Of a DNA stretch of 37,729 nucleotides, positions 2,023-37,729 are shown one piece after another. The notes under the pieces are model-generated. The model did not search any database, was not told where the DNA came from, and saw only the letters and a program-made list of their open reading frames with translations. The DNA comes from a virus, in IMG/VR virus record IMGVR_UViG_3300034007_000002, positions 1 to 37,729 of that record; one strand, given 5' to 3'. The stretch's first letter is position 1; the number at the start of each line of letters is the position of its first letter. The translations under genes and the position numbers were made by a program.

Positions 2023-2024
2023 TT

Positions 2025-2687
2025 ATGTTCCACGAAATCGTATTCAGTTTAAGCGTAGACCGCGCCCTCTCTACCCACGAATGGCTGACGACCATCCTGG
2101 AGTTGGGCGACCAGGCCGAGCAGCGCATCCCGCAGGGCACGGACGGGCGGCGGAAGTTCAACGCCTCGCTCGGCGTCCGCTCGCTCAAAGACCTGCAAGA
2201 CCTCCTCAAATTCCACGCGCTGCGCCACGGCGAGACCTACGGCTTCAAGGTGCGCGACCTCGTTGATTACACCGTCGCGCGCGGCACCGAAGGCACGCTC
2301 CAATACACCTACAACGGCGTCACGGCGAGCTTCCAGTTGCAGAAGGTTTACACGGACGCGGCGGCGACGTGGATACGCGAGATTTATAAACCCGAGTCAG
2401 GGAGCGTCAAGGTCTATAAGAACGGCTCGCTTCAGACCGTCACCACTCATTACATCATCAACTATGCGACGGGGATTATTACTTTCGTGACCCCGCCGGC
2501 GGCCGGCTCCGTCATTGAGTGGGAGGGGCGCTTCTACGTGCCCGTCCGGTTCACGGTCAAGGAGATACCGGCGGCCGAGTTCATCGCCACGATGGAAGAG
2601 GCGGCGGACGGCTCGGGCTGGGTGGTGAAGTCGGGCACGTCCGACCTGCCCGAGGTCGGCATGATTGAGATTAAAGACTACATCTGA
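2025..2687 (+). CDS. Distal tail protein, DUF2460-like (RcGTA g12-like)
   Basis: The N-terminus FHEIVFSLSVDR...GDQAEQRIPQ...RRKFNASLGVRSLKDLQDLLKFHALRHGETYGFKVRDLVDY matches my memory of the DUF2460/TIGR02217 pattern. Gene order is TMP then this gene. Confidence 0.8.
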   Translation: MFHEIVFSLSVDRALSTHEWLTTILELGDQAEQRIPQGTDGRRKFNASLGVRSLKDLQDLLKFHALRHGETYGFKVRDLVDYTVARGTEGTLQYTYNGVTASFQLQKVYTDAAATWIREIYKPESGSVKVYKNGSLQTVTTHYIINYATGIITFVTPPAAGSVIEWEGRFYVPVRFTVKEIPAAEFIATMEEAADGSGWVVKSGTSDLPEVGMIEIKDYI

Positions 2688-3613: not shown

Positions 3614-4098
3614 TGTCGGAGACAACCGCACTCTACAGGCCGGGACTCGTTACCCGCGACGACATCGTGAGGGTCGCACGCACGCTCAAAGGCGTGCCGT
3701 TCAGGCATCAAGGCTCTTATCCCAAGACCGGCCTCGACTGTCGCGGTGTCATCGAGTACATCGCCTTCGCGCTGTGGGGGCGATCTATCCCCGCACGCGA
3801 GTACCAGCGCAAGCCCGACGGCGCGGAGTTCCTTGAGAAGATGCGCGCCGAGATGACGGAGATTGACCCGGCGGACGCGCGGCACGGCGACGCGGTGCTG
3901 ATTCACTTCCCGCGAGACGCCGAGGCGAGGCACGGCGGCGTGCTCGCCGACGGGCCTGTGTTCGCCGCCGACCCTTCCGAGCGGATGCTGATACACGCCT
4001 GGGAGAGTCGCGGCGAGGGTGAGGTGAGGGAAGAGCCTTTGCGCGGGTGGAAGCGCAAAAACATTGATTACGCCTTCCGCTTCCCCGGCATCAGTTAG
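3613..4098 (+). CDS. NlpC/P60-family cell-wall peptidase (RcGTA g14-like, tail-associated)
   Basis: GVPFRHQGSYPKTGLDCRGVIEY (catalytic Cys context) with downstream His residues (HGDAVLIHF...RHGGV). ATGA overlap with the upstream gene. Confidence 0.8.
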   Translation: MSETTALYRPGLVTRDDIVRVARTLKGVPFRHQGSYPKTGLDCRGVIEYIAFALWGRSIPAREYQRKPDGAEFLEKMRAEMTEIDPADARHGDAVLIHFPRDAEARHGGVLADGPVFAADPSERMLIHAWESRGEGEVREEPLRGWKRKNIDYAFRFPGIS

Positions 4099-4109
4099 GA
4101 GGTAGACGA

Positions 4110-7100: not shown

Positions 7101-7496
7101 GGCGGGTACAATCTCGCCGTCTCGGTCGGCGGCACGACCATCTACACGCTCACGACGAACGTCTCCGCCGCCGAACGGGTGCGCGTCGTGGTCGCGGGTT
7201 CCGTCGTCAGGTTCTATCGCTACTTCCTGGGCGCGCTCATCTACCTGTGTGAGACGCCGGTCGCGCCGTCTTTCCCGCTCCGCGTCTGGGCCCGCATCAG
7301 CTTCCTTCAGAGCGGCGTTACCACCGCCGTCGAACAGGTAATGTTGACGACGCGGCCGAAGCCCGTCACTAGCTTCACCGCCGCGCAGCAGCAGCTCTAC
7401 TACGGCGGTCTGAAGGCGCCGGTACAGGTTCGCATTTACCAGCACTCGGGCGTCCGTGAGATCGGCTACGGGTTCGCTTGGGAGGGGGCAATATAA
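4110..7496 (+). CDS. Host-specificity / central tail fibre protein (gpJ-like, RcGTA g15-like)
   Basis: 1128 aa with a GTG start. It has a hydrophobic N-terminus and the RLAGNIFWGT motif seen in g15-like proteins. Size and position follow the g12-g14 homologues. Confidence 0.8.
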   Translation: MAAAVPLLIQVGIAAGTYVASSLLAPKPKLNAVDKGRFDDIRITTAEEGGFIPLCFGQRARLAGNIFWGTVTREYVSHTEGRTGGKGGSAQQPTPPTNTYSYKKSFAIMVCATPVKSYRRISENLETIYNTLGSELREDFYEAENHVLAGGASAVVDGSCSGGQAVRLAASGQYVEIEVTALFAGLHTVVIFYKASAPAQVYLSTNGGSETLVSLPASGGDPINVTATLQLSRGLNTIKFRGGTGAADLDRIYVSGTGSPPEFDPPEVTNLIDTTASFPADADDPTPFYNTVQTFDATGYFEGFTTAGGQARFELFAGKETQPQSAIIVAVEGASETPAFRDVSYFATEDYLLKEGQLGNFVFEIEPEIQDLDATLLYLYTLDGKVTAADCDFSLLAGRKISGLVIDHRAPLSETVTALEAWFNFDIVPKGGKITAIPRGGAVAARLYERELRAHLFGEERPLAAVKVAHEDPTDLPGEVDVVYLDSSPSKDFHSGNQTAQKIVGFSFDKETLTFPIVGDPDTAHAVGMRYLDARHLAAKPAELVCGFGKRHFIPTDILEVELEDGTLYTYRVGSKQADLQGMVKFGAVPERASIYAQGGAGVSGRGGDVLLIRPPANTLLVVADCVPIRQEDLGRLIVYGAACPRGVGYWPGYHLNKKDQNGEAERVGGFETAATIGIVETASQSAAKFGLEAARSFVVKLYNGSLESRTEEEVRAERVNLALYGSGNRWEVIQFLTATPQAASAPFVAQYLVTGVVSGLYGTEVFSANHQAGDYFVLFDGAVASFPMRPADVTQTFDFIGQTAGQALGDAEVAGVSTLNFQGNSAKPLAVSRVELDDETQLAPRDSAGSILIAPDPRTNPEIVGDEYLIDYLSDDRSTIIHSDSFGEEQEVPALFKSTASLYSGAGANKYVNVSGNTLSGTGDDSVIGPSGSARARSLQRILKAGNYVEATLKAGSTFASDSAQVGLISEQLDWTNPGTGADYVKTDYLVRLFYSGGYNLAVSVGGTTIYTLTTNVSAAERVRVVVAGSVVRFYRYFLGALIYLCETPVAPSFPLRVWARISFLQSGVTTAVEQVMLTTRPKPVTSFTAAQQQLYYGGLKAPVQVRIYQHSGVREIGYGFAWEGAI

Positions 7497-7499
7497 GCC

Positions 7500-8594
7500 A
7501 TGAGCAACACGCAATTTCTACAGGAGCCGGAACCGCTCGACAGGGAGCAGAACCTCGAAGGCTTCCTCAAGCTACGGCTGCAAAGCCTTGACCGAGCCGT
7601 CGCGGGTTACGTGTCCGTCTCGCTGCAAGGGCTGACCGGCAACGTAGACCTCTCGCCGCCTCAGGCGAAGTACAGGGTCGTGAAGTTGACGGGGGCGCCT
7701 TCGGGCGCCGTCAGCGTCCGCATCCCCGCCACGACCGGCGCGAACGCGGATATTATCTTCGTCAACACCTGCACCGGCTCTAGTTCCACCGTGACGCTCA
7801 AGAGCACGGGCGCGAACGCCGGCAACTCGTCGGGCGTCTCGCTCGCCACGGGTAAGACGCGGCACGTCAGGCACGACGGGGAGAGCGTCTACCCGGTGGC
7901 GCCCGAGCAGGCGACCACGCCGAGCACGCTGACCTCTAGCCTCGTCGCCTACTACAAACTTGACGAGTGGGCGGGGATGCGACTGGACTCGGTCGGCACC
8001 GGCCACCTGACCGACAACAACACCGTGACGCAGAACCCCGGCAAGCTCGGCGCGGCGGCGCAGTTCACGGCCGCAAATTCCGAATACCTGTCCGTCGCCG
8101 ACAACCCGGCGCTCTCGATGGGTAACATCGAGTTCACCGTCTGCGCGTGGGTGTACCTCGACAGCAAGACGGCGGCGCGCACCGTCTGCGCCAAGCGCGG
8201 CGTCGCCGGCGTGAGCGGCGGCGAGTTCTCACTCGTCTACGACAACTCGGCCGACCGCTTCCTCTTCTCCGTCTTCGACTCGACGACGGGTGCTAACACC
8301 GCGACGGCTAACATCTTCGGCAGCCCCTCGACCGGCACCTGGTACTTCCTCGTCGGCATGGTGGAAGGCGGGAACGTGAAGATCAGCGTCAACGGCGGGG
8401 CGTTCAACACGACCGCGAAGACCGTCACCATCCCCGACTCCGCACACCCCTTCTACATCGGCGCGCAGCAGCCGACGCCGACCTTCTTTTGGGACGGGAG
8501 GATTGATACCGTAGGTATTTGGAAGCGGGCGCTGACGGCCGCCGATCTCACGGAGCTTTACAACGGCGGCGCCGGTAAGGAGTACCCGTTCTAG
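7500..8594 (+). CDS. Tail fibre / receptor-binding protein with C-terminal LamG (concanavalin-A-like lectin) domain
   Basis: The C-terminal 220 aa read LVAYYKLDE...GHLTDNN...AAQFTAANSEYLSV...FTVCAWVYLDS...FSLVYD...WYFLVGM...ISVNG...FYIGAQ...FWDGRIDTVGIWKRALTAADLTELYNGG. This is the Laminin_G_3 pattern. It is the last gene of the tail block. Confidence 0.75.
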   Translation: MSNTQFLQEPEPLDREQNLEGFLKLRLQSLDRAVAGYVSVSLQGLTGNVDLSPPQAKYRVVKLTGAPSGAVSVRIPATTGANADIIFVNTCTGSSSTVTLKSTGANAGNSSGVSLATGKTRHVRHDGESVYPVAPEQATTPSTLTSSLVAYYKLDEWAGMRLDSVGTGHLTDNNTVTQNPGKLGAAAQFTAANSEYLSVADNPALSMGNIEFTVCAWVYLDSKTAARTVCAKRGVAGVSGGEFSLVYDNSADRFLFSVFDSTTGANTATANIFGSPSTGTWYFLVGMVEGGNVKISVNGGAFNTTAKTVTIPDSAHPFYIGAQQPTPTFFWDGRIDTVGIWKRALTAADLTELYNGGAGKEYPF

Positions 8595-8606
8595 GGGCAG
8601 CGCTCG

Positions 8607-12973: not shown

Positions 12974-13002
12974 AGTCTAACGCGAGAGAAAGGGAAAGTC
13001 AA
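12974..13002 (-). promoter_or_regulatory. Leftward promoter TTGACT-17-TAGACT
   Basis: The minus strand reads TTGACT ttccctttctctcgcgt TAGACT. The -10 is embedded in CGCGTTAGACTT. Confidence 0.55.
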
Positions 13003-13016
13003 ACTAACAATTACTC

Positions 13017-13046
13017 TTGCGTAAACTTTTCTTTGGCGTTAGACTT
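13017..13046 (+). promoter_or_regulatory. Rightward promoter TTGCGT-17-TAGACT, 8 nt upstream of ATG 13054 (leaderless mRNA predicted)
   Basis: TTGCGT aaacttttctttggcgt TAGACT tcccagcc ATG. The -10 is embedded in GGCGTTAGACTT. No SD can fit in the 8-nt gap. Confidence 0.55.
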
Positions 13047-13053
13047 CCCAGCC

Positions 13054-13272
13054 ATGAGTGCAACACTTACGACCAAAGAAGCAGCCGAGCGCCTCGGAGT
13101 TTCGCCAGCGCGCGTGCGTCAACTTGTACTTTCGGGCGAACTGCCGGCTGAAAAGTTCGGCCGTGACCTGATGATTAAAGAAGGTGATTTGAAGTTGGTC
13201 GCGGATCGCCCGATAGGTCGGCCGCCGAAGGCGCAGACCAAGAACACAGCAAAGAAAGGCAGTAAGAAATGA
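13054..13272 (+). CDS. Excisionase/MerR-like HTH DNA-binding protein (72 aa)
   Basis: LTTKEAAERLGVSPARVRQLVLSGELPAEKFGRDLMIKEGDL fits the HTH_17 / excisionase-family pattern. The C-terminal tail is AKKGSKK. Confidence 0.75.
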   Translation: MSATLTTKEAAERLGVSPARVRQLVLSGELPAEKFGRDLMIKEGDLKLVADRPIGRPPKAQTKNTAKKGSKK

Positions 13273-13514
13273 GCAGACAGCCACTTTCACCACCAGCAGA
13301 GCTAGACCTCGAAGACATAGCGGAAGGAATCACCGCTGTGCTTGATGGCCAAGACGCAATACTGAAGATGCTATGGTCGATACGAAGTGGCGTTAATGCG
13401 TCTTTCTTGGATGACTCCGATTTTCAGGTCATTAATATGCGGCGCAACTTCGCGCGGAACAATTTGAGAGTCAAGTCCGCTGCCGCAAAGGCAAAGAAAG
13501 GCGGGAAGAAGTAA
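13269..13514 (+). CDS. Hypothetical small acidic protein (81 aa), C-terminal tail AKKGGKK
   Basis: ATGA overlap with the upstream gene. No recognisable family. Confidence 0.6.
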   Translation: MSRQPLSPPAELDLEDIAEGITAVLDGQDAILKMLWSIRSGVNASFLDDSDFQVINMRRNFARNNLRVKSAAAKAKKGGKK

Positions 13515-13531
13515 GTTACGACTCCTGTGAA

Positions 13532-13885
13532 GTGAATAGAATGAAAAAGTCAGAACAAAAGTTGCTACGTAAATCCCTGAACAAGATTCTTCCTAGGGAT
13601 AGAGTTTCGCGGGAGGAACTAATTGGTAAAACTCCGCAGGAGCGGACAGATATACTTCTAGACCGCCTTGTGACTCCCGAGCAACAAGAGCGCGCAGGGC
13701 GCTATATGAACCGGACATTAGTGAGAATCTCTCTGCGAGAGGCACCCTCAGACGATGTGCCTCCCATAGATAAGATCAAGCTCTACGCCCGCTCCGGCTA
13801 CCACCTGCACCACATCGGCACGGATGAGGACTTCGAGCAAGTGTGGGAAGAGGCATTCCCTGAAGAGAAAGGCGGGAAGAAGTGA
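13532..13885 (+). CDS. Hypothetical protein (117 aa; alternative ATG at 13541), C-terminal tail EKGGKK
   Basis: ORF in series with its neighbours. No recognisable family. Confidence 0.55.
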   Translation: MNRMKKSEQKLLRKSLNKILPRDRVSREELIGKTPQERTDILLDRLVTPEQQERAGRYMNRTLVRISLREAPSDDVPPIDKIKLYARSGYHLHHIGTDEDFEQVWEEAFPEEKGGKK

Positions 13886-13953
13886 GCGGTGAGGAGATTA
13901 AATTGGCTGATGTGAGATACAAGGCGGCGCGCGAGCTGCGATAGGAAAGACCA

Positions 13954-14334
13954 TTGTTCGAGTCTGAAGAAGAGAAGAGAGTCAAATTTCTCTCCCGCAT
14001 TACCGATGAGGCGTATGAGCTTGCGATTCGGCTCGGCGTTTCAGAGGCTGCGGAGGGGGGAAGCGAGAGCGACCTGTACGCCCTCGAAAAGCTGTACCGC
14101 ATCCGGCTCATGGCTGTGCGGCGGATGATACGTCGCTGGAATGCTTCCACCGAAGCCGATATAGAGTTTAGGAAGACCGACGAGCAGAAGGCCCGGGACG
14201 CGCGCCACGCAGAACTGACCGAAATGTTCATGCGCGAGAAAGGGATGTCGCGGGTCGATGCGATGGTCGCGGCGTCGGGCGCCATGTACATGGAGGTCTA
14301 CAGCAAAGACAAGGACGACGATCTCGCTAACTAA
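13954..14334 (+). CDS. Hypothetical protein (126 aa, TTG start uncertain)
   Basis: ORF in the same operon-like series. No recognisable family. Confidence 0.45.
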   Translation: MFESEEEKRVKFLSRITDEAYELAIRLGVSEAAEGGSESDLYALEKLYRIRLMAVRRMIRRWNASTEADIEFRKTDEQKARDARHAELTEMFMREKGMSRVDAMVAASGAMYMEVYSKDKDDDLAN

Positions 14335-14373
14335 CGTCCCCGAGTACGACGGGCGACGAGGAGGGCAGTTACA

Positions 14374-14562
14374 GTGGAACTAGAGCTTGGAGAGTATGCG
14401 CGGTGGATTCTCGTCGAAAGCCCCGATGACTTCGACTGGGAAGAAGTGAGCTATGACGGGCACGGGTACGTCATCCTGAAGGACAGAAGCAGGCTCGACG
14501 TGAAACCGGATTTGTATCGGGCCGAGCGAGAGGCATGGAACGCAGAGCGGCATAGTAGATAG
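14374..14562 (+). CDS. Hypothetical small acidic protein (62 aa)
   Basis: GTG start preceded by GAGGAGG. No recognisable family. Confidence 0.5.
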   Translation: MELELGEYARWILVESPDDFDWEEVSYDGHGYVILKDRSRLDVKPDLYRAEREAWNAERHSR

Positions 14563-14609
14563 CAGTCTTAATGTCACTAACGTCATACTCGGCGAAGGTT
14601 TAGAGGGTT

Positions 14610-15308
14610 ATGGACGAAATAGCAACTCAGAAGTTCGTAAAGGAAGCAGTCTCACAATTCGTAGAGCTATGGGAAGATATTCCTGAAGCCCAACTAATCA
14701 AGCGCGACTCCAATCACTTCTTAATTGTTAAACCAACCTCTCTAATAAAAGAACTAAATGATGCCATACCATACGCAACGATACACATAAACTTAGAAGA
14801 GTTGTCCAGGCATTTTTTAAAGTCCGGGTCTATCGGGGAGCCAAGTATAGATAAAAGGTACATTGCTAAATTACAGATTCACGACATGCTCCGTACGGCT
14901 GAACTTGCCCCTAGCGTCTTCTCCTATTTCCTTAATTTTCTAGAGATATTGACGCTCCGAGAAGGTTTGGAGTCCCTATTAGGGTCTTTATCTGAAGACT
15001 CAAAGACAAAACTTGCAGAAGTTGCTGAACGCCTATTTCAAGTCATGTTGCAGCACTATAAGCTTCTGAAGGAGACAAAGCCCGGAGCCTCAAGTGTTAT
15101 TACTGATTTTGAAGCGCTTGAGGTCTTCCGCAAATCTAGGAATAGAGTGCTTTCCAAACGCCAATTAGCAAAAGAGATGCAAACAACTCCGGCTACCGTG
15201 CGTAGTTGGCTTCACAGAAAGGGATTCAAATCATCTGAAGAATTGCTGGATGATCTTTTAAAGCGTATTCACACTCTAATAGACAATGCACGGGAGGGTG
15301 AGAAGTAA
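14610..15308 (+). CDS. Low-GC paralog 1: unknown N-terminal domain plus C-terminal HTH
   Basis: Aligns by eye with 15380..16147. The N-termini share MDE..Q...K..V..F...W.D.PEAQ..KRD..HFLIVK and HINLEE. The C-termini share KPGASSVI...LAKE..T.PATVR.WL..KG..S..EL.DD. Confidence 0.75.
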   Translation: MDEIATQKFVKEAVSQFVELWEDIPEAQLIKRDSNHFLIVKPTSLIKELNDAIPYATIHINLEELSRHFLKSGSIGEPSIDKRYIAKLQIHDMLRTAELAPSVFSYFLNFLEILTLREGLESLLGSLSEDSKTKLAEVAERLFQVMLQHYKLLKETKPGASSVITDFEALEVFRKSRNRVLSKRQLAKEMQTTPATVRSWLHRKGFKSSEELLDDLLKRIHTLIDNAREGEK

Positions 15309-15379
15309 GTCGCTTTAGTTAGTGTTAGCCGCAGCCCGGTATGACCAAGAGCACAGTGTTAAGTAGAAGCTGAAAAGTT

Positions 15380-16147
15380 ATGGACGAAGAGGCAATCCAG
15401 AGGCTTGCGAAGAACGTAGTAGTGACGTTTCTAGTGGATTGGAAAGACACGCCCGAGGCGCAGGTGGTTAAGCGAGACGGGGCACATTTCTTGATCGTGA
15501 AGCTAGACTCACCGTTCTCTGCTGCGTTACATATCAATCTGGAAGAGAGATGCGAGCATGAGCTAAAACATCTCTACGAAGTAGTCGGGACGGAAGAAAG
15601 TGCGGACGATACTACTGACCTTATTTATAGTCTCGTCTATCGCCTACCACAGGAACTAACTTACATAACTAGAAGCGTGCCCGGTCTCTTCATCTACAGT
15701 CTTCATCTGCTGGACTTGTTAGCGTACCGTGAGCGCCTACGATCTGTATCAGAGTCTTTAACTCAAGGCAGACGGGAAAGGACTGAACTAGTAGCCAGAA
15801 TATTAACTCAAGGGTTATTACTGGCGCATGGCTTAACAGAGAGAAAGAAGCCGGGAGCATCAAGTGTCATCGATGACGACAAAGTACTTGATATTTTTCT
15901 TAGACTCCAAGGTGACGTGCCTTCAATCCGTAGGTTAGCAAAAGAACTAGAAACCGAACCTGCCACCGTGCGTAACTGGCTTCGCAAGAAGGGCTACAAC
16001 TCGCCTAAAGAATTAGCAGACGACGTAGTAAATTCAAATTCCAACTCAAAAGTAGATTTCTTTCTAAAAGTCAAAAGGTTACTTACTAAAAGTCAAAAGG
16101 GAACAACGGAAAGAAAGCAAAGGGGGAGGGTAGAAATTAAGCCCTAA
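15380..16147 (+). CDS. Low-GC paralog 2: unknown N-terminal domain plus C-terminal HTH
   Basis: Shares the motifs listed for 14610..15308. Its last codons lie inside the left arm of the 33-bp inverted repeat. Confidence 0.75.
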   Translation: MDEEAIQRLAKNVVVTFLVDWKDTPEAQVVKRDGAHFLIVKLDSPFSAALHINLEERCEHELKHLYEVVGTEESADDTTDLIYSLVYRLPQELTYITRSVPGLFIYSLHLLDLLAYRERLRSVSESLTQGRRERTELVARILTQGLLLAHGLTERKKPGASSVIDDDKVLDIFLRLQGDVPSIRRLAKELETEPATVRNWLRKKGYNSPKELADDVVNSNSNSKVDFFLKVKRLLTKSQKGTTERKQRGRVEIKP

Positions 16148-16211
16148 TCCTACCCGGGTAGAATTAACCTCGAATTATTACCTGGGTAGGATTAGGGCTT
16201 AATTTCTACCC
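16128..16211. repeat. 33-bp inverted repeat (one mismatch, G-U compatible) around an 18-nt spacer
   Basis: The left arm GGGTAGAAATTAAGCCCTAATCCTACCCGGGTA (16128-16160) pairs with TACCTGGGTAGGATTAGGGCTTAATTTCTACCC (16179-16211). Confidence 0.9.
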
Positions 16212-16213
16212 AA

Positions 16214-16241
16214 TTGACAGGATTTAGATTGGCGTTAGACT
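16214..16241 (+). promoter_or_regulatory. Promoter TTGACA-16-TAGACT
   Basis: TTGACA at 16214-16219 and TAGACT at 16236-16241. The -10 context TTGGCGTTAGACT is identical to that at 13033-13045. Confidence 0.55.
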
Positions 16242-16247
16242 GCGATT

Positions 16248-16506
16248 ACAGAAGCGGCGGGTGTGGCCCTGGAAAGTCAACACCCGCCGCGAGTCAAACC
16301 AGGACTTTTGACAGCCCCGGCTCGTTTGCGAGTGTAGCGAGAACCGACCCGGGGCGCAACAGCCATGAAGGCCGCCCCGTGATGGCGCTCTCTAGTAGGG
16401 CGTCGGCTGAGCCGTAGGTTTAGGTTTCTCGCGCACCGCTTTGCGTGAGATGGCAGGGCGTTCGTCGTCGGGGGTCACGGCCCGACGGCGGACGCCTTTT
16501 GCTTTT
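16248..16506 (+). ncRNA. Candidate structured RNA or attenuator leader of about 260 nt between promoter and terminator
   Basis: No convincing ORF. There is an 11-bp perfect stem, GCGGCGGGTGT...ACACCCGCCGC, at about 16254-16290. Nested CCCCGG/CCGGGG helices follow, and the region ends in the strong terminator at 16457-16506. Confidence 0.35.
16457..16506 (+). terminator. Strong rho-independent terminator
   Basis: A 16-bp stem pairs 16457-16472 with 16481-16496 (two G-U pairs) around an 8-nt loop, followed by TTTTGCTTTT. Confidence 0.7.
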
Positions 16507-16526
16507 GACGGCGGCCGGTATCACGC

Positions 16527-16859
16527 ATGAAAAACCCCTTTCAGAACGGTTCGCTACGTTACGTCGAGGCGAACGGCGTCCGCTTTACTCGATCCGTCTG
16601 CGGGTACTGCGGTCTTCCCTGTGTCTACCTGGGGGAGGCCATCCGCATCGACTTAGCCGAGGGCGGCTTCCAAATCCTCCACGTCTGCCTCCCCTGCCGA
16701 CGGCACCTGTGTTTAGACCTGCGGGGGTTATCGGACGCCGAAGTAGACCGCCTCGGATATCCCAGCGGGTATCCCAGCGGGTATCCCAACCGCTCGCCGA
16801 GAAACGAGCGCCACCTCGAAGAAGTGCACAGCCGGTGGGAAAGGAGACGTGCAGCGTAA
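16527..16859 (+). CDS. Zinc-ribbon protein (110 aa) with a GYPSGYPSGYP repeat, translationally coupled to the primase gene
   Basis: CGYCG...C...HVCLPC forms a four-Cys motif. Its TAA overlaps the primase ATG (TAATG). The alternative frame, the N-terminal extension of the 774-aa ORF, is Arg-rich and protein-unlike. There is no clear SD before ATG 16527. Confidence 0.55.
   Translation: MKNPFQNGSLRYVEANGVRFTRSVCGYCGLPCVYLGEAIRIDLAEGGFQILHVCLPCRRHLCLDLRGLSDAEVDRLGYPSGYPSGYPNRSPRNERHLEEVHSRWERRRAA
16756..16791. repeat. Tandem 12-bp repeat x3 (GATATCCCAGCG GGTATCCCAGCG GGTATCCCAACC)
   Basis: Read directly. It lies inside the zinc-ribbon ORF, about 70-100 bp upstream of the primase start. Confidence 0.9.
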
Positions 16860-18769
16860 TGGCTCAGCCCGCCACGGCCTTCACGAAGCAGGACGCGAAG
16901 AGGGACCGCCAGACTTACCAGCGGCTCGCCGGCATCGTTGACCGCCTCCTGCACCGTGACATCCAACGCCTCGACGAAGAGACGGCGCGGAAGTTCTTCA
17001 AGTCGTCGGTCTTCGCCACCATCCACAGCCTGCACGGATTCCTGAACGGCCGCGAGGTCTCGCACGACAGGCCGGTGATGAAGGCTCACAAGTTCGTCGT
17101 CGAGCACTTCGGCTACCGCGGCGACCGCGAGAACGACGCGGCCGTCGCGCGCTTCATGGCGCGCCACCTCTCGGGGCTGGCCGACGCGGAGAGGGCCGTC
17201 GGGCACCGGTACGTCACCGTCCGCCGCGCCGACAATCAGACCCAGCTCTTCACCAGCTACGAGGGCACACCGCTGCTCGACGCGGCCGAGTGGGTCTACT
17301 TCACGGCGCGGCAGAAGCCCGACTACTGGAAGAACCCGGCGGCGGCCGTGACGGACGATTTGCTCGACGCCGCGCTCGCCAAACTCCCCGAGGTCAAGAC
17401 GCGGGACGACTCCATGCCGTGCGGTCATGCGCCCGAATCCGGCGAGTGCGACGAGTGCGTGCCTAAGACCTTCTGCGGGCATCCTTCGGGGTCGGGCCAG
17501 TGCGAAGAGTGCGAGAAATGGGAGGCGGGCGACCTGATGAACGATTCAGTCGTCAAGGGCATGTGGACGAAGATAATAAACGCCGCCGAGCGGGCGTTAA
17601 TCAAGGAGTTCGATTCCGGCGCGGACCCGGAGCTGGCCGCCGCCAAACACGCCGCGAAGATTATCGAGATGGGCAAGCATATCAAGGAGAAGCTCGCCCG
17701 CGAGCGGCTTCGGGCGGCGATGATGCCTGCGCGGCGACATGACGAGGAGGACGAGGACACGCAAACGACGCACAGTGGTAAAGAAAGTGTTACCTCAAAC
17801 GCGGGGGGTACCCCTGACAAATTTGTCAGGGTACCCGATGATTATGTAGTTGAACCGGTTGAGGTTACTGAACCGGCCGCAGAGGATTTACCCGAAATTC
17901 AGCGCAACGCGCTCGAATACGCGGCGGCGGGGATCGCCGTCCTCCCGCTGTGGGGGGTCGCGGACGCGATTTGTGATTGCCCCGCGGGTTCGGAGTGCCG
18001 GACGGCCGGGAAGCACCCGCACAGCCAGCTCGCCCGGAACGGCGTCTACTCGGCTACGATCGACGGGCAGGTCATACGCGGCTGGTTCAAGAAAGACCCG
18101 CGGATCAACCTGGGGGTTGCGATGGGCGGCGCCCTCAACCTCATCTGCGTAGACATAGACCCGCGCAACGACGGCGACGCCTCGTATTCAGATTTGATAG
18201 ACGCCCACGGCGAAGACGCCTTTCCCGAGACGTTCACCGTGAAGACCGGCGGGGGCGGCTGGCACCGCTACTACAGGCTCCCCTACACCATCAAAGCCGA
18301 GAAAGGCGAGCTAAAGGGAAAGCTCGGCCCCGGCATCGACATCAAAGGCGCGGGCGGGCAGATAGTCGCGCCCGGCTCAGTTCACTCAAGCGGCGCTTCC
18401 TATCAGGTCGAAACTAACGCCTACATCGTGGAAGCCCCGGAGTGGATGGTAAACGTCCTGCTCAAGTCGGCGTCCGGCGAGAAGCCCGAGGTCGTTGTTG
18501 ACTTTCAGGCGCACAGCGACCGGAAGCGCGCGGGGGTGGGCGGCCCAATCATCGTCGAGGGCGAGCGCAACGAAAGGCTCTTTAAGGTCGGGTGCGCGCT
18601 GTGGGGCAAGGGCGAAGTGGGGAGCCGGGGGGAGTTGTTACAGCGCCTCTCCGAAGTGAACCTCAAAAGGGTGTCACCCCCGCTCGACTCGGATGAGGTT
18701 TGGAAGATTGTTGAGAGCATAGTGAGCCGCTACGCCCTAGGCGTGCCGATTAAGGAAGGTGCCGCATGA
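16859..18769 (+). CDS. Bifunctional primase-polymerase (Prim-Pol domain plus PriCT-like C-terminus) with a roughly 330-aa N-terminal region of unknown type
   Basis: AAGGAG lies upstream of ATG 16859. Prim-Pol motifs are GIAVLPLWG...GKHP...NLICVDIDPRNDG...GGGWHRYY...GIDIKGAGGQIVAPGSVH. The C-terminus GERNERLFKVGCALWGKG...PLDSDEVWKIVESI is PriCT-like. Confidence 0.85.
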   Translation: MAQPATAFTKQDAKRDRQTYQRLAGIVDRLLHRDIQRLDEETARKFFKSSVFATIHSLHGFLNGREVSHDRPVMKAHKFVVEHFGYRGDRENDAAVARFMARHLSGLADAERAVGHRYVTVRRADNQTQLFTSYEGTPLLDAAEWVYFTARQKPDYWKNPAAAVTDDLLDAALAKLPEVKTRDDSMPCGHAPESGECDECVPKTFCGHPSGSGQCEECEKWEAGDLMNDSVVKGMWTKIINAAERALIKEFDSGADPELAAAKHAAKIIEMGKHIKEKLARERLRAAMMPARRHDEEDEDTQTTHSGKESVTSNAGGTPDKFVRVPDDYVVEPVEVTEPAAEDLPEIQRNALEYAAAGIAVLPLWGVADAICDCPAGSECRTAGKHPHSQLARNGVYSATIDGQVIRGWFKKDPRINLGVAMGGALNLICVDIDPRNDGDASYSDLIDAHGEDAFPETFTVKTGGGGWHRYYRLPYTIKAEKGELKGKLGPGIDIKGAGGQIVAPGSVHSSGASYQVETNAYIVEAPEWMVNVLLKSASGEKPEVVVDFQAHSDRKRAGVGGPIIVEGERNERLFKVGCALWGKGEVGSRGELLQRLSEVNLKRVSPPLDSDEVWKIVESIVSRYALGVPIKEGAA

Positions 18770-20471: not shown

Positions 20472-20702
20472 ATGACCAGAACTTTAACGGCGACGATCTG
20501 GCGCGAGACGGACGGCTACGTCTCCCTCTGCCCCGAACTCGACATCGCCTCACAAGGGGATACGGTCGAGGAGGCGCGGGCGAACCTCCAGGAGGCGGTG
20601 GACCTCTTCTTCGAGGCGGCGGACGCCTCCGAGGTGGCCGAGCGTCTGAAGCCCGAGATGTACGTCACTTCGCTGGAGGTCAACGTTGGGGAGGCTGCGT
20701 AG
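20472..20702 (+). CDS. hicB: HicB-family antitoxin
   Basis: LTATIWRETDGYVSLCPELDIASQGDTVEEARANLQEAVDLFFE fits the HicB/UPF0150 N-terminal pattern. It overlaps the downstream toxin gene. Confidence 0.85.
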   Translation: MTRTLTATIWRETDGYVSLCPELDIASQGDTVEEARANLQEAVDLFFEAADASEVAERLKPEMYVTSLEVNVGEAA

Positions 20703-20910
20703 GCTCTCGGGGCGCGAGGTCTGCGCCATCCTCGCCCGCCACGGCTTCGCCGAGGCCCGCCAGCGCGGGAGTCACGTGGTCATGCAGAGGAGGACGGACC
20801 AGGGGACGGTGACCGTGCCGGTACCCCTCCACAACGAGCTGCGCACCGGCACGCTCCACTCCATCATCAGGCAGTCGGGGGTTCCGCGGGCGGAGTTCGA
20901 GACGGAGTAA
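20686..20910 (+). CDS. hicA: HicA-family mRNA interferase toxin (TTG start)
   Basis: LSGREVCAILARHGFAEARQRGSHVVMQR....VTVPVPLHNELRTGTLHSIIRQSGV fits the HicA/YcfA pattern. Confidence 0.85.
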   Translation: MGRLRRLSGREVCAILARHGFAEARQRGSHVVMQRRTDQGTVTVPVPLHNELRTGTLHSIIRQSGVPRAEFETE

Positions 20911-20976: not shown

Positions 20977-21194
20977 TCTGACGCGAGTCTCTGACGCGGA
21001 GGCCGTTTTTTGACCTCTCTGACGCGCGTAACCCTCACGCCTAGAATCACTTACAGCCGAAAATTTTCGCGTCAGAGACTCGGGATGTTTTTTATTTCTT
21101 GTAAGTTAAAGCAAATACAAGACTTATGGCGCTAAAAATCCGCGTCAGAGAGCCTCGCTATTTTAGTTGTAATGCGTTAGAAAGTTCTGACGCG
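20977..21194. repeat. Array of six 9-bp repeats TCTGACGCG (extended consensus about TCTCTGACGCGGA)
   Basis: Forward copies at 20977, 20990, 21018 and 21186; reverse copies (CGCGTCAGA) at 21068 and 21141. All lie in a lower-GC stretch of about 620 bp with no convincing ORF. Confidence 0.9.
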
Positions 21195-21575: not shown

Positions 21576-22433
21576 ATGAAGGCTTACAAGGATTTTGGCC
21601 TTAAAGAGAATCCATTCGTGCCGAGTCCGAACCCCCGGTTCCTCTACCTGACCGACCAGACGAATGCTTGCCTCTTCAAGTGCAAGTTTGTCATCGAGGA
21701 GCGGCAGGGACTCTCCCTCATCGTCGGGAAAATCGGCTACGGCAAGACTTCGGTGCTGCGCGAGCTCCTGAACGGGTACATCGACGACGAGACTTACAAG
21801 ATCGCGATGCTCCCGAACGGCAGCTTCCCTTCCGAGATGCAGCTCGCGAAGGCCATCTCCAGTGAGTTGGGGCTCCCGGGTCGCCGGTCATTACTCGCGC
21901 AAATAAATGAGATACGCGACTACGCTTTCCAGATTTACGGCGGCGGCGGGACCATCATTCTCATCATCGACGAGGCGCAGAATCTTAAGGGCGCTCAGTT
22001 CGATTTCCTCCGGGAATTGCTCAATTTTGAGAGTAACGAGGCGAAGACCATTCAGATCATCATCGCCGGCCAGCCCGAGATTGAAACCAAACTGGCGACC
22101 AAGCCCGCACTCGTCTCCCGCATCATCCTGACGAACTACCTGGATACCTTCACGTTCGAGGACATGGTGGCCGCCCTGGAGCACCGGATACGCCTCGCCG
22201 GGGGTAAGCTCGACATCCTCGGTGAGGACGCGTTGAAGGCTCTCTACGTCGCTTCCAGGGGCGTCCCGCGCGAGATCATGAAGATTGCCAACGCTTCCCT
22301 TCTCCTCGCGGCCGTCAACGAAACCAGACCGATCACCGACGGCATCATCAAGCTAGCGGTCGAGAACATTTTGAGCACGGAACGAAATGGAGAACCGGAA
22401 ACCACTGAACTTCGCGCAGGCGCTTCGCAGTAG
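21576..22433 (+). CDS. ExeA-like AAA+ ATPase (AAA_22 type; relatives include ExeA, TniB and MuB-like proteins)
   Basis: FGLKENPFVPSPNPRFLYLTDQ...LIVGKIGYGKTSVLRELL (Walker A) and IILIIDEAQNL (Walker B). Confidence 0.85.
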   Translation: MKAYKDFGLKENPFVPSPNPRFLYLTDQTNACLFKCKFVIEERQGLSLIVGKIGYGKTSVLRELLNGYIDDETYKIAMLPNGSFPSEMQLAKAISSELGLPGRRSLLAQINEIRDYAFQIYGGGGTIILIIDEAQNLKGAQFDFLRELLNFESNEAKTIQIIIAGQPEIETKLATKPALVSRIILTNYLDTFTFEDMVAALEHRIRLAGGKLDILGEDALKALYVASRGVPREIMKIANASLLLAAVNETRPITDGIIKLAVENILSTERNGEPETTELRAGASQ

Positions 22434-23169
22434 GCCGCGCGAGTCACCCGATAACCAACCGGCAGAACGTCAAGTATCCACCACGGCTGATAGCCAGCTA
22501 TCCACCACGGCGGCTATCCAGCAACCCACCGCGCCGGCAACACAGATTCCACCACCTAGCCTGCTAGCCACCACCCCCTCGGAACCGGCTATCCAGCAAT
22601 CCCCAAAGCGCAGGGTGGATAGCCACCGGAAGAAACGTGTGGATAGCCGAAAAGGCGACCGGCATCGTGGGGACAAGGTGCCCTTCAACAACCGGTTAAG
22701 CTCGGAGACAGTCAGCCGTATCAAACACTTCTGCGTGGATCATGGACTTGAGCAACAGGAATTCGCCGAGCTCGCGGCAATCCACTTTATGGATGCGGTG
22801 GATAGCCAGAAAGCCGAAGCGTCGGATAGCAAGATAGCCTCTGATGATAGAGAATTGATGATACTATTTAGAACGGAGCTTAGTATCATCAATCTCTACC
22901 TTCAGTACAACCCCGAAAACCGGTGGAAACCGGCCGACGACTACGAGGGTCAGCGGTATAACGGGAAGGACATTCGCCTTGTCGAAATCGGCATCATCCA
23001 GACCCAATTCAACGCGAGGTTCAAGAAGGTCAACTCGTTCAAATACTACACGACCGAGATAGACGAGGCGCTGGCCGTGCCCCTCACAGGTGAGACAATC
23101 GACATCATGCTCAGACAGGGCCGCCGCAGGTGGGAACAGGCGACCGGCAAGCTTATAAGCACACCTTAA
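22387..23169 (+). CDS. Ribbon-helix-helix-like DNA-binding protein (260 aa) carrying an intragenic iteron cluster
   Basis: The low-complexity N-terminus (STTADSQLSTTAAIQQ...RRVDSHRKKRVDS) is encoded by the repeats. FNNRLSSETVSRIKHFCVDHGLEQQEFAELAAIHFM then fits a strand-helix-helix pattern. The C-terminal 120 aa are of unknown type. Confidence 0.7.
   Translation: MENRKPLNFAQALRSRPRESPDNQPAERQVSTTADSQLSTTAAIQQPTAPATQIPPPSLLATTPSEPAIQQSPKRRVDSHRKKRVDSRKGDRHRGDKVPFNNRLSSETVSRIKHFCVDHGLEQQEFAELAAIHFMDAVDSQKAEASDSKIASDDRELMILFRTELSIINLYLQYNPENRWKPADDYEGQRYNGKDIRLVEIGIIQTQFNARFKKVNSFKYYTTEIDEALAVPLTGETIDIMLRQGRRRWEQATGKLISTP
22474..22839. repeat. About ten copies of a GGATAGCC / GGCTATCC core in two opposed orientation blocks
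   Basis: GCTATCCA-type copies at 22474, 22497, 22512 and 22587. TGGATAGCC-type copies at 22614, 22638 and 22797, with partial copies at 22488, 22823 and 22832. Several match the DnaA box TTATCCACA at 7-8 of 9 positions. Confidence 0.85.
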
Positions 23170-23229
23170 AAAACCCTTCCTAACTGATAAGAAAATCTTA
23201 ACTTTAACGCCAAAAACAAGGGCGTTTCA

Positions 23230-23238
23230 TGCTACAAT
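23230..23238 (+). promoter_or_regulatory. Extended -10 element TGCTACAAT
   Basis: TGn-TACAAT with no clear -35. It lies at the start of a stretch of about 280 bp with no ORF. Confidence 0.4.
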
Positions 23239-23244
23239 GTTCGC

Positions 23245-23482
23245 ATGTTTTGAACGTGAAAACAGGCGGCGCGTCAGCCCCTTGCCAGAGTCCAAACGCG
23301 ACCGCCTGCCTTATCCGCTGACAGGCAGCGGGGCGGCAATCTTAGCATAAGTTTTGCCTCAAACAACCCCGCCGACCTGTTCCATTCTGGGAGCAGTTAA
23401 AGGCAGTGTCCGGCGGGGCAAGTAAGGATCATCGGCCGCCCGATTCGCGCATGTTTAGCGCGGGGGGTGGCCGTCTCTTTTT
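23245..23482 (+). ncRNA. Candidate structured RNA or leader of about 240 nt
   Basis: No convincing ORF. Helices include CAGGCGGCGCGT...ACGCGACCGCCTG, GGCAA...TTGCC and CCCCGCC...GGCGGGG. The region ends in a terminator-like hairpin. Confidence 0.3.
23433..23482 (+). terminator. Terminator-like compound hairpin followed by TCTCTTTTT
   Basis: CGGCCGCCC (23433-23441) pairs with GGGTGGCCG (23465-23473). An inner CGCGC/GCGCG stem is nested within, and a T-tract follows. Confidence 0.5.
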
Positions 23483-23512
23483 CCCGCCGGCGTCTCCGCC
23501 GAAAGGGGAAAA

Positions 23513-23716
23513 TTGAGACAGACGCCACAGCCCGTCGCCACGCCGGCCGCGAACTTCCACGCCTTTACCAGAGACATCGTCGCTCTACGCGCCGCTCACG
23601 CGGCCCCCTGGGGCATCTTCCCACGCCTGGCGGCCTACCGCGTCGAGCCGGGCGGGAACGGAGCTAAACTCATCTTCGAGCAAGATCGGGGGCGCAGGAA
23701 GGCGGGCAGGCCGTGA
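23513..23716 (+). CDS. Hypothetical protein (67 aa, TTG start)
   Basis: AGGGGA lies upstream of the TTG. Its stop overlaps the next start (GTGA). Confidence 0.4.
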   Translation: MRQTPQPVATPAANFHAFTRDIVALRAAHAAPWGIFPRLAAYRVEPGGNGAKLIFEQDRGRRKAGRP

Positions 23717-35964: not shown

Positions 35965-37729
35965 ATGGCACGCACCCAACAAGACATTCTCGTCAAGATT
36001 AAAGTCCTTCTCGAAGGACTCGGGAATGTGCGTGCGCTCGCCGGCCACGTTAAAGAGTTGAACGGCGGGAGCGGGCAGACGGCGGCGCTGGCCGGAAACA
36101 TTGACCGGCTCGCGGGAGCCGTCGATCGACTCGCCAACGCGTCGGGGAAGACCGCGAAGTCCAGCGGCGGCTTCGTGCGCTTCCTCGTCGGCGTCTCGGC
36201 GGTCGTCTCTACCCTCGCCACCATCCCCCAAGCCTTCCAGGGCATCAACAAGCTGCTCGACCTCGCCGAGCGTCTGGGGGGCGGTCTCGGCGGCCTCTTC
36301 GGGAAGCTCACAGGGCTATTCCAGCGCGCGGGGGCGGCAGCGTCGAGCGCCCTGTCGTCGGTCGGCTCTTCGCTCTCAGGACTCGTCAGCGGGGCGGGGG
36401 CGGGCGCTGGCGGGGCGCTGGCTGGCATAGGCGGGGCGCTGGCCGCCCTCGCCCCCTTCGCGCTCGCTGCGGCCGCCGCGCTCGTCGTCGTCGTCGGGGT
36501 GGTGGCGGCGGCGGCGGCCGGCTTCCTCTCGCTCGCCGCTTCGGTCGGGGTCGGTGCCGTCGCGCTTACCTTCATCGCGCAGCGCGGGCTTGAGGTTCAA
36601 CGCTCGCTTGAGCAGGTGCGGCTCGGCATCGCCGCAATCATCACCTCTCTGGCCGACGTGAAGGTGGACGGCCTGCCCGTCGAGGGCGCGGAGAAGTTCC
36701 GCGCCGCGATGGCCGTCTCCGCCGACCAGTTAAAGAAGCTCCAGGTGGACGCCGTCAACACGGTGGCGACCTTCGAGCAGATTGCCCCCGCGTTTCAGAC
36801 CGCCATCGGGCCGGGGCTGGCCGCCAAGCTCACGCTCGACGAAATACGGGGCATCACGGTCAAGGTCGTGCAGGCGGCCTCCGCCATCGGCCTGCCGCTC
36901 AATCAGGTCAGTCAGGAAGTCCGCGCCATCCTCGAAGGCACCATCAACGAGGACGCGCGCCTCGCCAAAGTGCTCGGCATCTCTAACGAGATGGTCAAGT
37001 CGTGGAAGGCGCAGGGGAAGCTCGCCGAAGAGTTGAACAAGCGCCTCGCGGGCTTCGCGGTCGCGGGCGTCGAGGCCGCCGAGACGATGGACGGCCTGAC
37101 CTCGAATCTTGAAGAGGCTTTGAACGTCTTCTCGGCCGAGGCGACGGGGCGAGCCTTCGACGCTCTCAAAGGCGAGTTCAAGCGGCTCCTCCCGCAGCTC
37201 TTCGACTTCAAGAGCGCAGGGATAGCCGCGCAGTTTAAGGGACTCACGACGCTGGCCGACGAGGTGCTGGTCAGGGTCGTGCGCATCGGGGGCGGGATAG
37301 CGCAGAGCATCGTCTCGGGTCTGCGGCAGGCTTCGGCGTTCGTCCAACAGAACCGCAGCCAGATCGACGCCGTGCTGAATCAGATAGAGCTAATGGTGCG
37401 CCTGCTGCTGCGCGCCGTGGGCGTCGTCGCGCAGATCGCCACCTCTTCCGCGACGTGGGGCAGCACGCTCTCGGCGGTGCAGACCATCCTCGGGTTAATT
37501 AACGTCATCCTCGCGCTCGTCCTCGACCAGTTCCGGCAGATGGCCCCTTACCTTCAGCTCGCCATCCTCGCCGCAAACCTGCTCATCGCTTCACAGCCCG
37601 CCCTCGCCGCCGCCGCGCGGGTCGGCGCCGGCGGGGCGAGCGGGCAGGAGCCGACCGGACTCAGTTCCGTGCGGCTCAACCCGGACGGGAGCCTCAAGGG
37701 TGGGATTAGCGTCGCGGGCGGTGCGCGAG
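35965..37729 (+). CDS. Tail tape measure protein, N-terminal portion (continues at 128..2022 through the overlap; about 1219 aa in total)
   Basis: ATG 35965 is the only start after the in-frame TAG at 35896. The frame stays open to the window end and matches the phase of 1..2022. It contains the hydrophobic segment ALAPFALAAAAALVVVVGVVAAAAAGFL and long helical repeats. Confidence 0.9.
   Translation, partial: MARTQQDILVKIKVLLEGLGNVRALAGHVKELNGGSGQTAALAGNIDRLAGAVDRLANASGKTAKSSGGFVRFLVGVSAVVSTLATIPQAFQGINKLLDLAERLGGGLGGLFGKLTGLFQRAGAAASSALSSVGSSLSGLVSGAGAGAGGALAGIGGALAALAPFALAAAAALVVVVGVVAAAAAGFLSLAASVGVGAVALTFIAQRGLEVQRSLEQVRLGIAAIITSLADVKVDGLPVEGAEKFRAAMAVSADQLKKLQVDAVNTVATFEQIAPAFQTAIGPGLAAKLTLDEIRGITVKVVQAASAIGLPLNQVSQEVRAILEGTINEDARLAKVLGISNEMVKSWKAQGKLAEELNKRLAGFAVAGVEAAETMDGLTSNLEEALNVFSAEATGRAFDALKGEFKRLLPQLFDFKSAGIAAQFKGLTTLADEVLVRVVRIGGGIAQSIVSGLRQASAFVQQNRSQIDAVLNQIELMVRLLLRAVGVVAQIATSSATWGSTLSAVQTILGLINVILALVLDQFRQMAPYLQLAILAANLLIASQPALAAAARVGAGGASGQEPTGLSSVRLNPDGSLKGGISVAGGAR
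37603..37729. repeat. Second copy of the 127-bp terminal overlap
   Basis: Identical to 1-127 by direct comparison. Confidence 0.95.

Follow-up and report, generated by a model that had tools for sequence, protein, structure and literature searches.

The DNA considered here is IMG/VR virus record IMGVR_UViG_3300034007_000002, analysed over its whole length of 37,729 nucleotides (the window), and our subject is a pair of genes within it: a gene for an ExeA-like AAA+ ATPase and, overlapping its 3' end by 47 nt, a gene that we call gene X, within the coding sequence of which lies an array of short DNA sites. The start codon of X is coupled to the stop codon of the ATPase gene, and we suggest that the two genes and the array may together form a partition-type cassette. 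The locus comprises the following features.

21576 to 22433, + strand: ExeA-like AAA+ ATPase gene (285 aa), the partner nucleoside triphosphatase (NTPase) of the cassette
22387 to 23169, + strand: gene X (260 aa), repeat-bearing, encoding a candidate DNA-binding adaptor or initiator
22387 to 22437, + strand: conserved N-terminal peptide MENRKPLNFAQALRSRP of the [RK]xxxF[AG]xL type, the presumed contact with the AAA+ partner
22468 to 22652, both strands: proximal array of ~9–10 TGG-ATAG-CCA-type sites
at or near 22474, 22496, 22512, 22520, 22562, 22587 and 22595, - strand: copies of the proximal array
at or near 22487, 22616 and 22640, + strand: copies of the proximal array
22614 to 22627: dyad GGTGGATAGCCACC within the proximal array
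22678 to 22806, + strand: coding part of a ribbon-helix-helix (RHH)-like fold, with the extended segment PFNNRLS followed by helices 106–118 and 123–140 (AlphaFold2, AF2, model)
22776 to 22784, - strand: degenerate distal site, TGGATTGCC
22799 to 22807, + strand: exact distal site
22823 to 22831, + strand: distal site CGGATAGCA
22833 to 22839: distal site GATAGCC
22843 to 22926: AT-rich element (GATGATAGAGA...), found family-wide, directly after the array
22854 to 22866 and 22881 to 22893: perfect 13-bp inverted repeat, ATTGATGATACTA / TAGTATCATCAAT
22927 to 23166, + strand: C-terminal helical domain (NLYLQYNPENRWKPADDY...), modelled with a predicted local distance difference test (pLDDT) score >90

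About 12 sites of the TGGATAGCC type lie at 22468–22839, and none occurs elsewhere in the ~37.6-kb genome. The heptamer GGATAGC is present in 11 copies in the window, as against 3.6 ± 1.8 expected (0/100 shuffles reach 11), and seven of these copies fall within 334 bp of the array at 22497–22830, on the - strand at 22497, 22513 and 22588 and on the + strand at 22617, 22641, 22800 and 22824. A position weight matrix built from the GGATAGC copies yields 12 non-redundant sites scoring above 12.5, all at 22468–22835; outside this interval, scores in the 37.7 kb peak at 11.7. A preceding sequence-only reading of this DNA had reported such a repeat cluster, and it is real, as are the two facing blocks of GCTATCCA-type and then TGGATAGC-type copies (with one + strand copy, at 22484, inside the first block), the exact 9-bp inverted repeat 22587–22595 / 22616–22624, and the reiterated peptides (LST, AIQ, VDS) that the repeats encode. 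The sites of the distal group (22776–22839) are spaced by 23–24 bp.

For comparison, 45 loci (designated by L and a number) were retrieved from viral, genome and metagenome collections, mostly from metagenome-assembled genomes (MAGs) of Pyrinomonadaceae and other Acidobacteriota, with one from a Chitinophagaceae MAG. All homologous genes of which the 5' half was recovered (n=30) carry an array of their own, with the exception of L041, which has no clear array, and a distal group of 2–3 sites is found 136–183 bp past the main array in nearly all loci. The general form of the site is TGG-N4-CCA, with a centre that is lineage-specific.

TGG-ATAG-CCA: the window and its close relatives
TGG-ACGC-CCA: L002, L003, L004, L011, L025, L028
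TGG-ACGG-CCA: L012
TTTGG-ATAT-CCAAA: L013, L017
CTGG-ACGT-CCAG: L018
TTTGG-AAAC-CCAAA: L015
GTGG-TTAA-CCAC: L036
other core variants: the remaining loci

These sites are selected as DNA and not as peptide, as the sequence-only reading had proposed, on the grounds that (i) one and the same DNA word is used in three frames and on both strands within a gene (encoding VDAH, RTPT and GRP in L002, and LDIQ, GYP and WIS in L013), (ii) 100 of the 132 site spacings between 15 and 35 bp measure 22–24 bp, with a mode of 23 bp that approximates two helical turns and is no multiple of three, and (iii) substitutions relative to the closest relative, L001, amount to 5.3% in the site cores as against 15.3% in the surrounding N-terminal sequence (p = 0.007–0.02). 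Relatives keep the repeats while the peptide drifts, a check that the sequence-only reading had called for. The peptides encoded at the distal sites change with the core (AAIHF to AGVHF to SAVHY; AVDSQ to CVDAQ to GVDGQ), and the reiterated tripeptides of diverse family representatives (VDA-H, VVN-H, VAS-H, VGT-H, LDI-Q and others) back-translate to NTGG-N4-CCAN words. Seeds defined for each locus occur at 9.5/kb inside the genes and at 0.17/kb outside, a figure that is partly circular because the seeds were picked by in-gene enrichment; the independent generic pattern TGG-N4-CCA occurs at 4.56/kb in the genes as against 0.10/kb outside. Since no lineage has its reading frame interrupted within the array, and since the start is coupled to the upstream stop, the region is both translated and a site array.

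The array and the protein segment that presumably reads it are inherited together. The window and L002 represent sister phages of the same host family that are otherwise near-identical (sister phages with ACGC-type sites have ATPases 93–96% identical to that of the window), and segment-wise comparison of the two yields the following nucleotide identities.

ATPase gene: 88%
N-terminal peptide segment: 94%
proximal array, fold-coding part and distal sites (22438–22842): 50–53%
AT-rich element: 90%
C-terminal domain: 82%
non-coding DNA 3' of X: 85%

A block of ~400 bp that contains the sites and the adjacent DNA-binding fold has thus been exchanged as one unit, and since sites and fold were swapped together, they behave as is expected of a cognate protein–site pair. 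Consistently, a change of site centre is accompanied by a change in the extended segment that precedes helix 1 (PFNNRL with ATAG, RQHFRI with ACGC, SITTRM with GTGGAA in L010, and GTFLRT with ATAT), the exception being L028, where an ACGC core goes with a different strand sequence; the RHH-like fold is therefore presumed to be the reader of the sites. The site-core types are intermixed in a rough, non-bootstrapped neighbour-joining tree built from the C-terminal domain, a pattern compatible with the specificity block having been exchanged repeatedly. Moreover, two cassettes with different centres occur in one MAG in the case of L017 and L018 (ATAT, ACGT) and of L006 and L012 (ATAG, ACGG), as expected if specificity governs compatibility.

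The AT-rich element behind the array is common to all lineages, irrespective of the site core, and in most loci no bin, or hardly any, is lower in GC content (35% GC at 22840–22905 in the window). Its GC fraction of 0.35 compares with 0.505 expected from its amino acids and the codon usage of the phage (z = -4.7), and the synonymous constraint within the gene peaks here, with the DDR codons GAT-GAT-AGA being identical in 28/28 genes. For the stem that the inverted repeat could form, 77.8% of cells are paired (26–59% in slid controls), four pairs are changed on both sides, and the repeat core is kept across lineages; support for conservation and covariation of the stem is moderate, because the region encodes protein and the sequences compared are relatives of one another. 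A sigma-70 promoter scan of the element yielded nothing, and the IHF consensus, inspected by eye, was a poor match there.

In the AF2 models, residues 1–97 of X are disordered, residues ~98–140 adopt the RHH-like fold, and residues ~160–253 constitute a conserved helical domain. The anatomy of N-terminal peptide, proximal array, fold, distal sites, AT-rich element and C-terminal domain is conserved across lineages. The public JGI gene call (P0068, 22678–23169) starts X at Val98, yielding 163 aa and omitting the 97 N-terminal codons that hold the array; that the longer form is the genuine one is indicated by the homologues and by conservation of the N-terminal peptide. X has no match in Pfam, PHROG, NCBIfam or PADLOC and none to Phage_rep_O, Rep_3 or other initiator families, its profile finds no match among PDB sequences, and Foldseek searches of PDB and BFVD with models of the C-terminal domain and of the full-length protein returned no match with E <0.4. 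A large protein collection contains 155 homologues, none of them annotated. The family defined by the C-terminal domain comprises at least 195 clusters at 50% identity, the domain being always located at the C-terminus of proteins of 200–460 aa, and 97 of 99 diverse representatives contain no Pfam domain. The label of an RHH protein, which the sequence-only reading had given to X, may be right: the secondary-structure pattern of the models (strand-helix-helix) is compatible with the beta-alpha-alpha order of RHH proteins, but the profile searches were not significant, with no Pfam RHH match and best PDB profile matches at E = 0.42–0.57. The PDB profile match 2kel_A, which we take to be the RHH regulator SvtR, aligns over the strand and both helices of X at an E-value in the non-significant range. 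The RHH assignment of the reader fold is hence plausible, not established. At L014 (5485–6411, on the Aridibacter chromosome OZ244151.1) only the C-terminal domain of X was matched, with no obvious array and no NTPase gene directly upstream, and this chromosomal homologue may be a decayed or repurposed copy. The ends of the contigs L017, L018, L026 and L033 fall within X, perhaps because assembly broke off at the C-terminal domain or AT-rich element that the cassettes share.

The ATPase encoded upstream of X possesses intact Walker A (GKIGYGKTS) and Walker B (ILIIDEAQ) motifs. It matches Pfam AAA_22 (3.8e-21), weakly TniB (8.6e-5), and PHROG 296 ('DNA transposition protein'), and it scores 137 bits against NCBIfam TIGR03015, which is below the cutoff of that model; a phmmer search against PDB sequences gave no match. 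A Mu-type transposition module (MuA + MuB) was considered and rejected, as the window was found to encode no transposase; L008 does have a transposase of the Mu type, but this is accompanied by a distinct AAA_22 gene of its own. Wherever upstream sequence is available, X is located directly 3' of an NTPase gene, the start of X in many cases overlapping the stop of that gene, and the ATPase gene is syntenic with X in all AAA-type loci. The partner belongs to one of two classes.

ExeA-like AAA_22 partner: the window, L001–L012, L019, L021–L025, L028, L037, L042–L045
canonical ParA partner: L013, L015–L018, L030, L032, L033, L038, L040

The ParA partners exhibit the motif KGGVGKT, match Pfam AAA_31 and CbiA, and have partition-ATPase models as their top NCBIfam matches; no conventional ParB-sized gene was found near the ParA–X pairs. 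In 23 loci the partner class is matched by the type of N-terminal peptide on X: AAA-linked proteins have the motif [RK]xx(x)F[AG]xL and ParA-linked ones a Lys/Arg-rich tail. When nine previously unexamined representatives were looked up blind, five had informative contigs, the other four being truncated, and for all five (5/5) the partner had been predicted correctly from the N-terminus of X. In L030, the C-terminal domain groups with AAA-linked genes, yet the partner is ParA and the tail is of the ParA type. It is thus presumed, on correlative support, that the N-terminal peptide contacts the AAA+ partner. The cassette occurs in a variety of genetic settings.

phages of the window type
L004: conjugative element (Replic_Relax; TrwB-type coupling protein, T4CP)
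L041: next to ArdC
L015: locus with a phage Gp157 gene
L006, L008, L009, L044, L045: large replicons or mobile islands

In ParA-linked cassettes, a small helix-turn-helix (HTH) gene is repeatedly located directly 5' of parA (HTH_17 in L038, 217–441, and L040, 527–736; an HTH-looking open reading frame (ORF) in L013, 1863–2195), and a Ser/Thr protein kinase gene follows directly 3' of X in several ParA-linked cassettes (L032:2407–4035, L038:2232–3077).

The window itself is a complete circular contig of ~37.6 kb, as judged from an exact terminal direct repeat of 127 bp (1–127 / 37603–37729), and represents the genome of a tailed phage with a lambda-type portal, a capsid gene, TerS and TerL (gpA type). 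Besides the cassette, the following features were recognised.

1 to 8600: RcGTA-like tail genes
16445 to 18769: ORF with Prim-Pol and PriCT_1
20472 to 20910: HicAB toxin–antitoxin pair

No integrase or recombinase is present among the window ORFs of >=120 aa, and no helicase domain or gene was recognised anywhere in the genome. The circular genome without a detectable integrase and the HicAB pair suggest, and would fit, maintenance as a plasmid-like prophage, which we therefore propose; a lytic phage is also compatible with these features. The Prim-Pol ORF has an N-terminal extension of ~480 aa without family match, within which the peptide SQRVSQRVSQ forms a short tandem repeat. A second, unrelated repeat cluster is found at 20977–21194, where TCTGACGCG occurs in six exact copies (strands +,+,+,-,-,+) with no further exact copy in the window; hicA and the ATPase gene are separated here by ~620 bp of non-coding DNA, within which the copies surround an AT-rich patch at ~21085–21135. 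The same repeats are present 5' of the ATPase gene in L002 (six copies) and L011 (four copies) and absent from L001, L003 and L005. The cluster might serve as an operator array or be another candidate for an origin, and it does not follow the site specificity of X. A low-GC island at 13000–16500 (45–55%, as against 62–66% elsewhere) contains ORFs without family match, the 25-nt word GCAAAGAAAGGCGGGAAGAAGTGAG at 13249, 13491 and 13862 (with a partial copy at 14438), and a 22-nt tandem at 16054–16097. The ~540 bp 3' of X (23170–23712), 85% identical to L002, contain no convincing ORF and no Rfam match, and the entire window is likewise without matches in Rfam and tRNA scans. Among 50,697 phage records, blastn found none that matches the module, and PADLOC assigned the latter to no defence system. 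A pac or terminase recognition site was rejected as an identity for the array, which is 3.5 kb from terS and belongs to a cassette found also in non-phage elements.

Taken together, these findings lead us to favour, at about even chances, the reading that the ATPase gene, gene X and the array inside it constitute a partition-type cassette of ATPase, adaptor and centromere in which an AAA+ ATPase takes the place of ParA, a functional assignment deduced throughout from sequence, synteny and covariation. As relatives of X are partnered by ParA, as X matches no initiator, and as the cassette resides in varied elements, a centromere with its adaptor fits better than an origin with its initiator. 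In the mechanism that we envisage, dimers of X would read the central base pairs of each site via the RHH-like ribbon and coat the ~370-bp array with its sites every ~23 bp; the short N-terminal peptide of X would engage the partner ATPase, presumably stimulating ATP hydrolysis; and the stimulated ATPase would position or segregate the copies of the element. The slot of ParA would be filled by the ExeA/TniB-like AAA+ ATPase in the window phage and its relatives, the site centre and the reader would diversify jointly, so that co-resident elements avoid mutual interference, and the phage would be maintained as a plasmid-like prophage. A partition cassette is defined by an NTPase, a site-specific adaptor and a cis array that move as a set, and in type Ib and type II systems the adaptor contacts the ATPase via a flexible N-terminal tail and recognises arrays of short repeats with a strand-helix-helix reader. 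AAA+ ATPases of the MuB type bind DNA non-specifically with ATP, hydrolysis being triggered by a site-bound partner, and ParA behaves likewise, so that substitution of an AAA+ ATPase for ParA is mechanistically conceivable.

Several points weigh against this assignment. We know of no AAA+ ATPase that acts as a partition motor, and a literature search for one found none; in the papers that could be searched, an incomplete set, neither the family of X nor an AAA+ partner in a cassette of the partition type is described. A conserved AT-rich inverted repeat just past the sites is a classic feature of origins that a centromere does not require; a partition model leaves the role of this element unexplained, and one could guess at a bend or a site for a host factor. 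The window carries no recognisable initiator or origin-binding protein besides Prim-Pol, absence of an integrase fits equally well a purely lytic phage, which would need no partition, the RHH profile searches lacked significance, and X is larger than type Ib adaptors, with an extra conserved domain. It is nonetheless tempting to speculate further that ExeA/TniB-like ATPases represent a new class of DNA-segregation motor which displaced ParA in situ, and that X is a dual-coding gene, its 5' half written by the centromere array, with the N4 centre serving as an evolvable compatibility code; or, going further still, that centromere and origin are combined here (sites plus AT-rich hairpin), placing both maintenance functions in one gene. 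This more daring proposal is put forward tentatively, and we consider it rather doubtful.

The sequence-only reading had proposed a replication origin embedded in an initiator gene in the manner of lambda O, and had considered recruitment of host DnaA. In the former case, X would bind the iterons as an O-some-like complex, the AT-rich inverted-repeat element would melt, the AAA+ ATPase would act as helicase loader or remodeller, and Prim-Pol would prime. What stands of this proposal is the layout in cis, which resembles ori-lambda in that dyad-type sites in helical phase inside the gene are followed by an AT-rich tract, along with the constraint on that tract at the DNA level in all lineages (the z-score, the invariant DDR codons and the stem covariation given above). 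Likewise, sites and DNA-binding domain are swapped as a cassette, as are ori and the N-terminal domain of O in lambdoid phages, the sites dictate peptide as extra iterons add residues to lambda O, and the window has a Prim-Pol without recognisable origin binder or helicase. What argues against it is that the operon partner in at least 10 homologous cassettes is a canonical ParA and no replication protein, that X lacks similarity to Phage_rep_O, Rep_3 or any initiator family and has no structural match, and that the ATPase is encoded upstream and is ExeA/TniB-like, not DnaC-like or P-like. Moreover, it is centromeres that more typically have 10–12 or more sites of mixed orientation, the cassette is also found in varied elements, beside other replication-type genes (Replic_Relax in L004), and the GC skew over the window shows a local dip over the ATPase–X module only, with no origin-type switch or inflection. 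We thus regard an origin, the main rival of the partition reading, as unlikely, though still to be reckoned with. As for DnaA, the reverse complement of 22638–22646 is indeed CTATCCACA, which matches the DnaA box at 8/9 positions and is the only match with <=1 mismatch in the gene, and eight matches with <=2 mismatches lie in the gene, compared with 44 in the remaining 37 kb. The resemblance, however, comes from the ATAG centre combined with the CCAC arm and is a by-product confined to this lineage: no match with <=1 mismatch is found in the ACGC, ACGG and ACGT lineages, including the near-identical phages L002, L003 and L011 of the same host family (L004, L012 and L018 likewise have none), and the feature conserved across the family is TGG-N4-CCA with variable centre and not TTATCCACA. 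Recruitment of host DnaA by the CTATCCAC-type cores, be it as main or auxiliary function, is hence highly improbable.

Alternatively, the array might be purely regulatory, with X an autoregulator or silencer that coats its own gene as a roadblock or filament and controls the operon or the decision between lysogeny and lysis. RHH-type partition adaptors such as omega do double as repressors, the array is in a transcribed region, so that binding should affect read-through, and the absence of further X-type sites from the genome is consistent with self-regulation; but 10–24 phased sites far exceed the needs of autoregulation, the obligatory pairing with an NTPase and the partner-specific N-terminal peptide would be left unexplained, and diversification of specificity between co-resident elements points to a function of the incompatibility type, so that we hold exclusive regulation to be improbable. 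Least probable, and barely worth entertaining, is that the low-complexity N-terminus is selected as peptide, with the DNA repeats as by-product. The frame does remain open across the array in all lineages, and tripeptides of the VDS/VDA type recur; yet the use of one word in three frames and on both strands for unrelated peptides within one gene refutes selection at the peptide level, the modal spacing does not preserve the frame, the sites extend into the folded domain, where conserved residues change to fit the core, and substitutions spare the cores and not the peptides.

Textbook partition motors belong to three NTPase classes, namely Walker-type ParA, actin-like ParM and tubulin-like TubZ. 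If the cassette does serve partition, its AAA+ ATPase would constitute a new class of motor, for which the evidence of functional equivalence would be unusually direct, as the same adaptor family with its embedded array is found behind either ParA or an AAA+ ATPase and the N-terminal peptide switches accordingly. A site array with its cognate binder and an NTPase is in itself a known kind of system, the AAA+ motor being the part that is possibly categorically new. Whatever its function, the family is unannotated and presents overlapping codes, in that a phased array of protein-binding sites dictates ~100 codons of a protein, and it provides a data set in which a short DNA-reading segment can be related to a specificity centre of 4 bp. 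Our findings also suggest that the phages of Acidobacteriota considered here live as plasmid-like prophages, which would matter for the reading of soil viromes.

Comparison with known systems places the cassette as follows. The window ATPase belongs to the superfamily of MuB/TniB/ExeA-like AAA+ proteins (AAA_22; PHROG 296), for which we know of no role in segregation; it differs from its transposition relatives in that the cassette lacks a transposase and the partner is a candidate site-array-binding protein. In ori-lambda, repeated initiator-binding sites lie inside the O gene with an AT-rich tract alongside, and extra iterons add residues to O (PMC7466680). The X locus is alike in that dyad sites inside the gene of the binder itself (22468–22839) are followed by a stretch of low GC content (22840–22905) and add residues to a flexible part of the protein; it differs in that X has no sequence or fold similarity to O, that the family has 10–24 sites as against 4–6 in lambdoid phages, and that the partner gene is upstream and encodes an ATPase of the AAA_22 or ParA class instead of P, DnaC or DnaB. 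In the ParA-ParT-parS system of the Streptomyces plasmid SCP2, parS is located inside the coding sequence of the ParB-like ParT, a location verified by chromatin immunoprecipitation with sequencing (ChIP-seq; PMC12260392). The ParA partner (in relatives of X), the non-canonical ParB-like adaptor and the centromere in the adaptor's own coding sequence are shared features, whereas in SCP2 the centromere is a single 18-bp inverted repeat and the adaptor a sliding-clamp-like HTH protein, and the X family has a 10–24-site array, an unrelated protein and, in the window, another NTPase class. In the type II ParMRC systems of R1 and of Clostridium perfringens plasmids, the RHH-type adaptor ParR binds ~10 short repeats (parC), and ParR-parC families of distinct specificity let related plasmids coexist (PMC9426499). 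Here the motor is the actin-like ParM, parC is upstream of the operon and there is no homology to X, yet ParMRC shows that similar adaptors can serve unrelated NTPase motors.

A correspondence in organisation is also seen with type Ib systems (TP228 ParF-ParG-parH, pSM19035 delta-omega-parS and pCXC100 ParA-ParB). The cassette of the window differs from these in that (i) its NTPase is an AAA_22/ExeA-like AAA+ protein and no Walker-type ParA, (ii) the adaptor is larger, at 240–460 aa across the family, with the extra conserved C-terminal domain, (iii) the array is inside the coding sequence of the adaptor, with 23-bp phasing, and not upstream at the promoter, and (iv) an AT-rich inverted-repeat element universally follows the array, RHH membership of X being only plausible. 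On the other hand, it shares with them the two-gene operon with the NTPase first and a site-specific adaptor second, the disordered N-terminal tail of the adaptor and the (for X, predicted) strand-helix-helix DNA reader, as well as multiple short repeats in cis, direct and inverted, as a (for X, putative) centromere array, the specificity of which sets compatibility; and the ParA-linked members of the family (L013, L015–L018, L030, L032, L033, L038, L040) fit this scheme.

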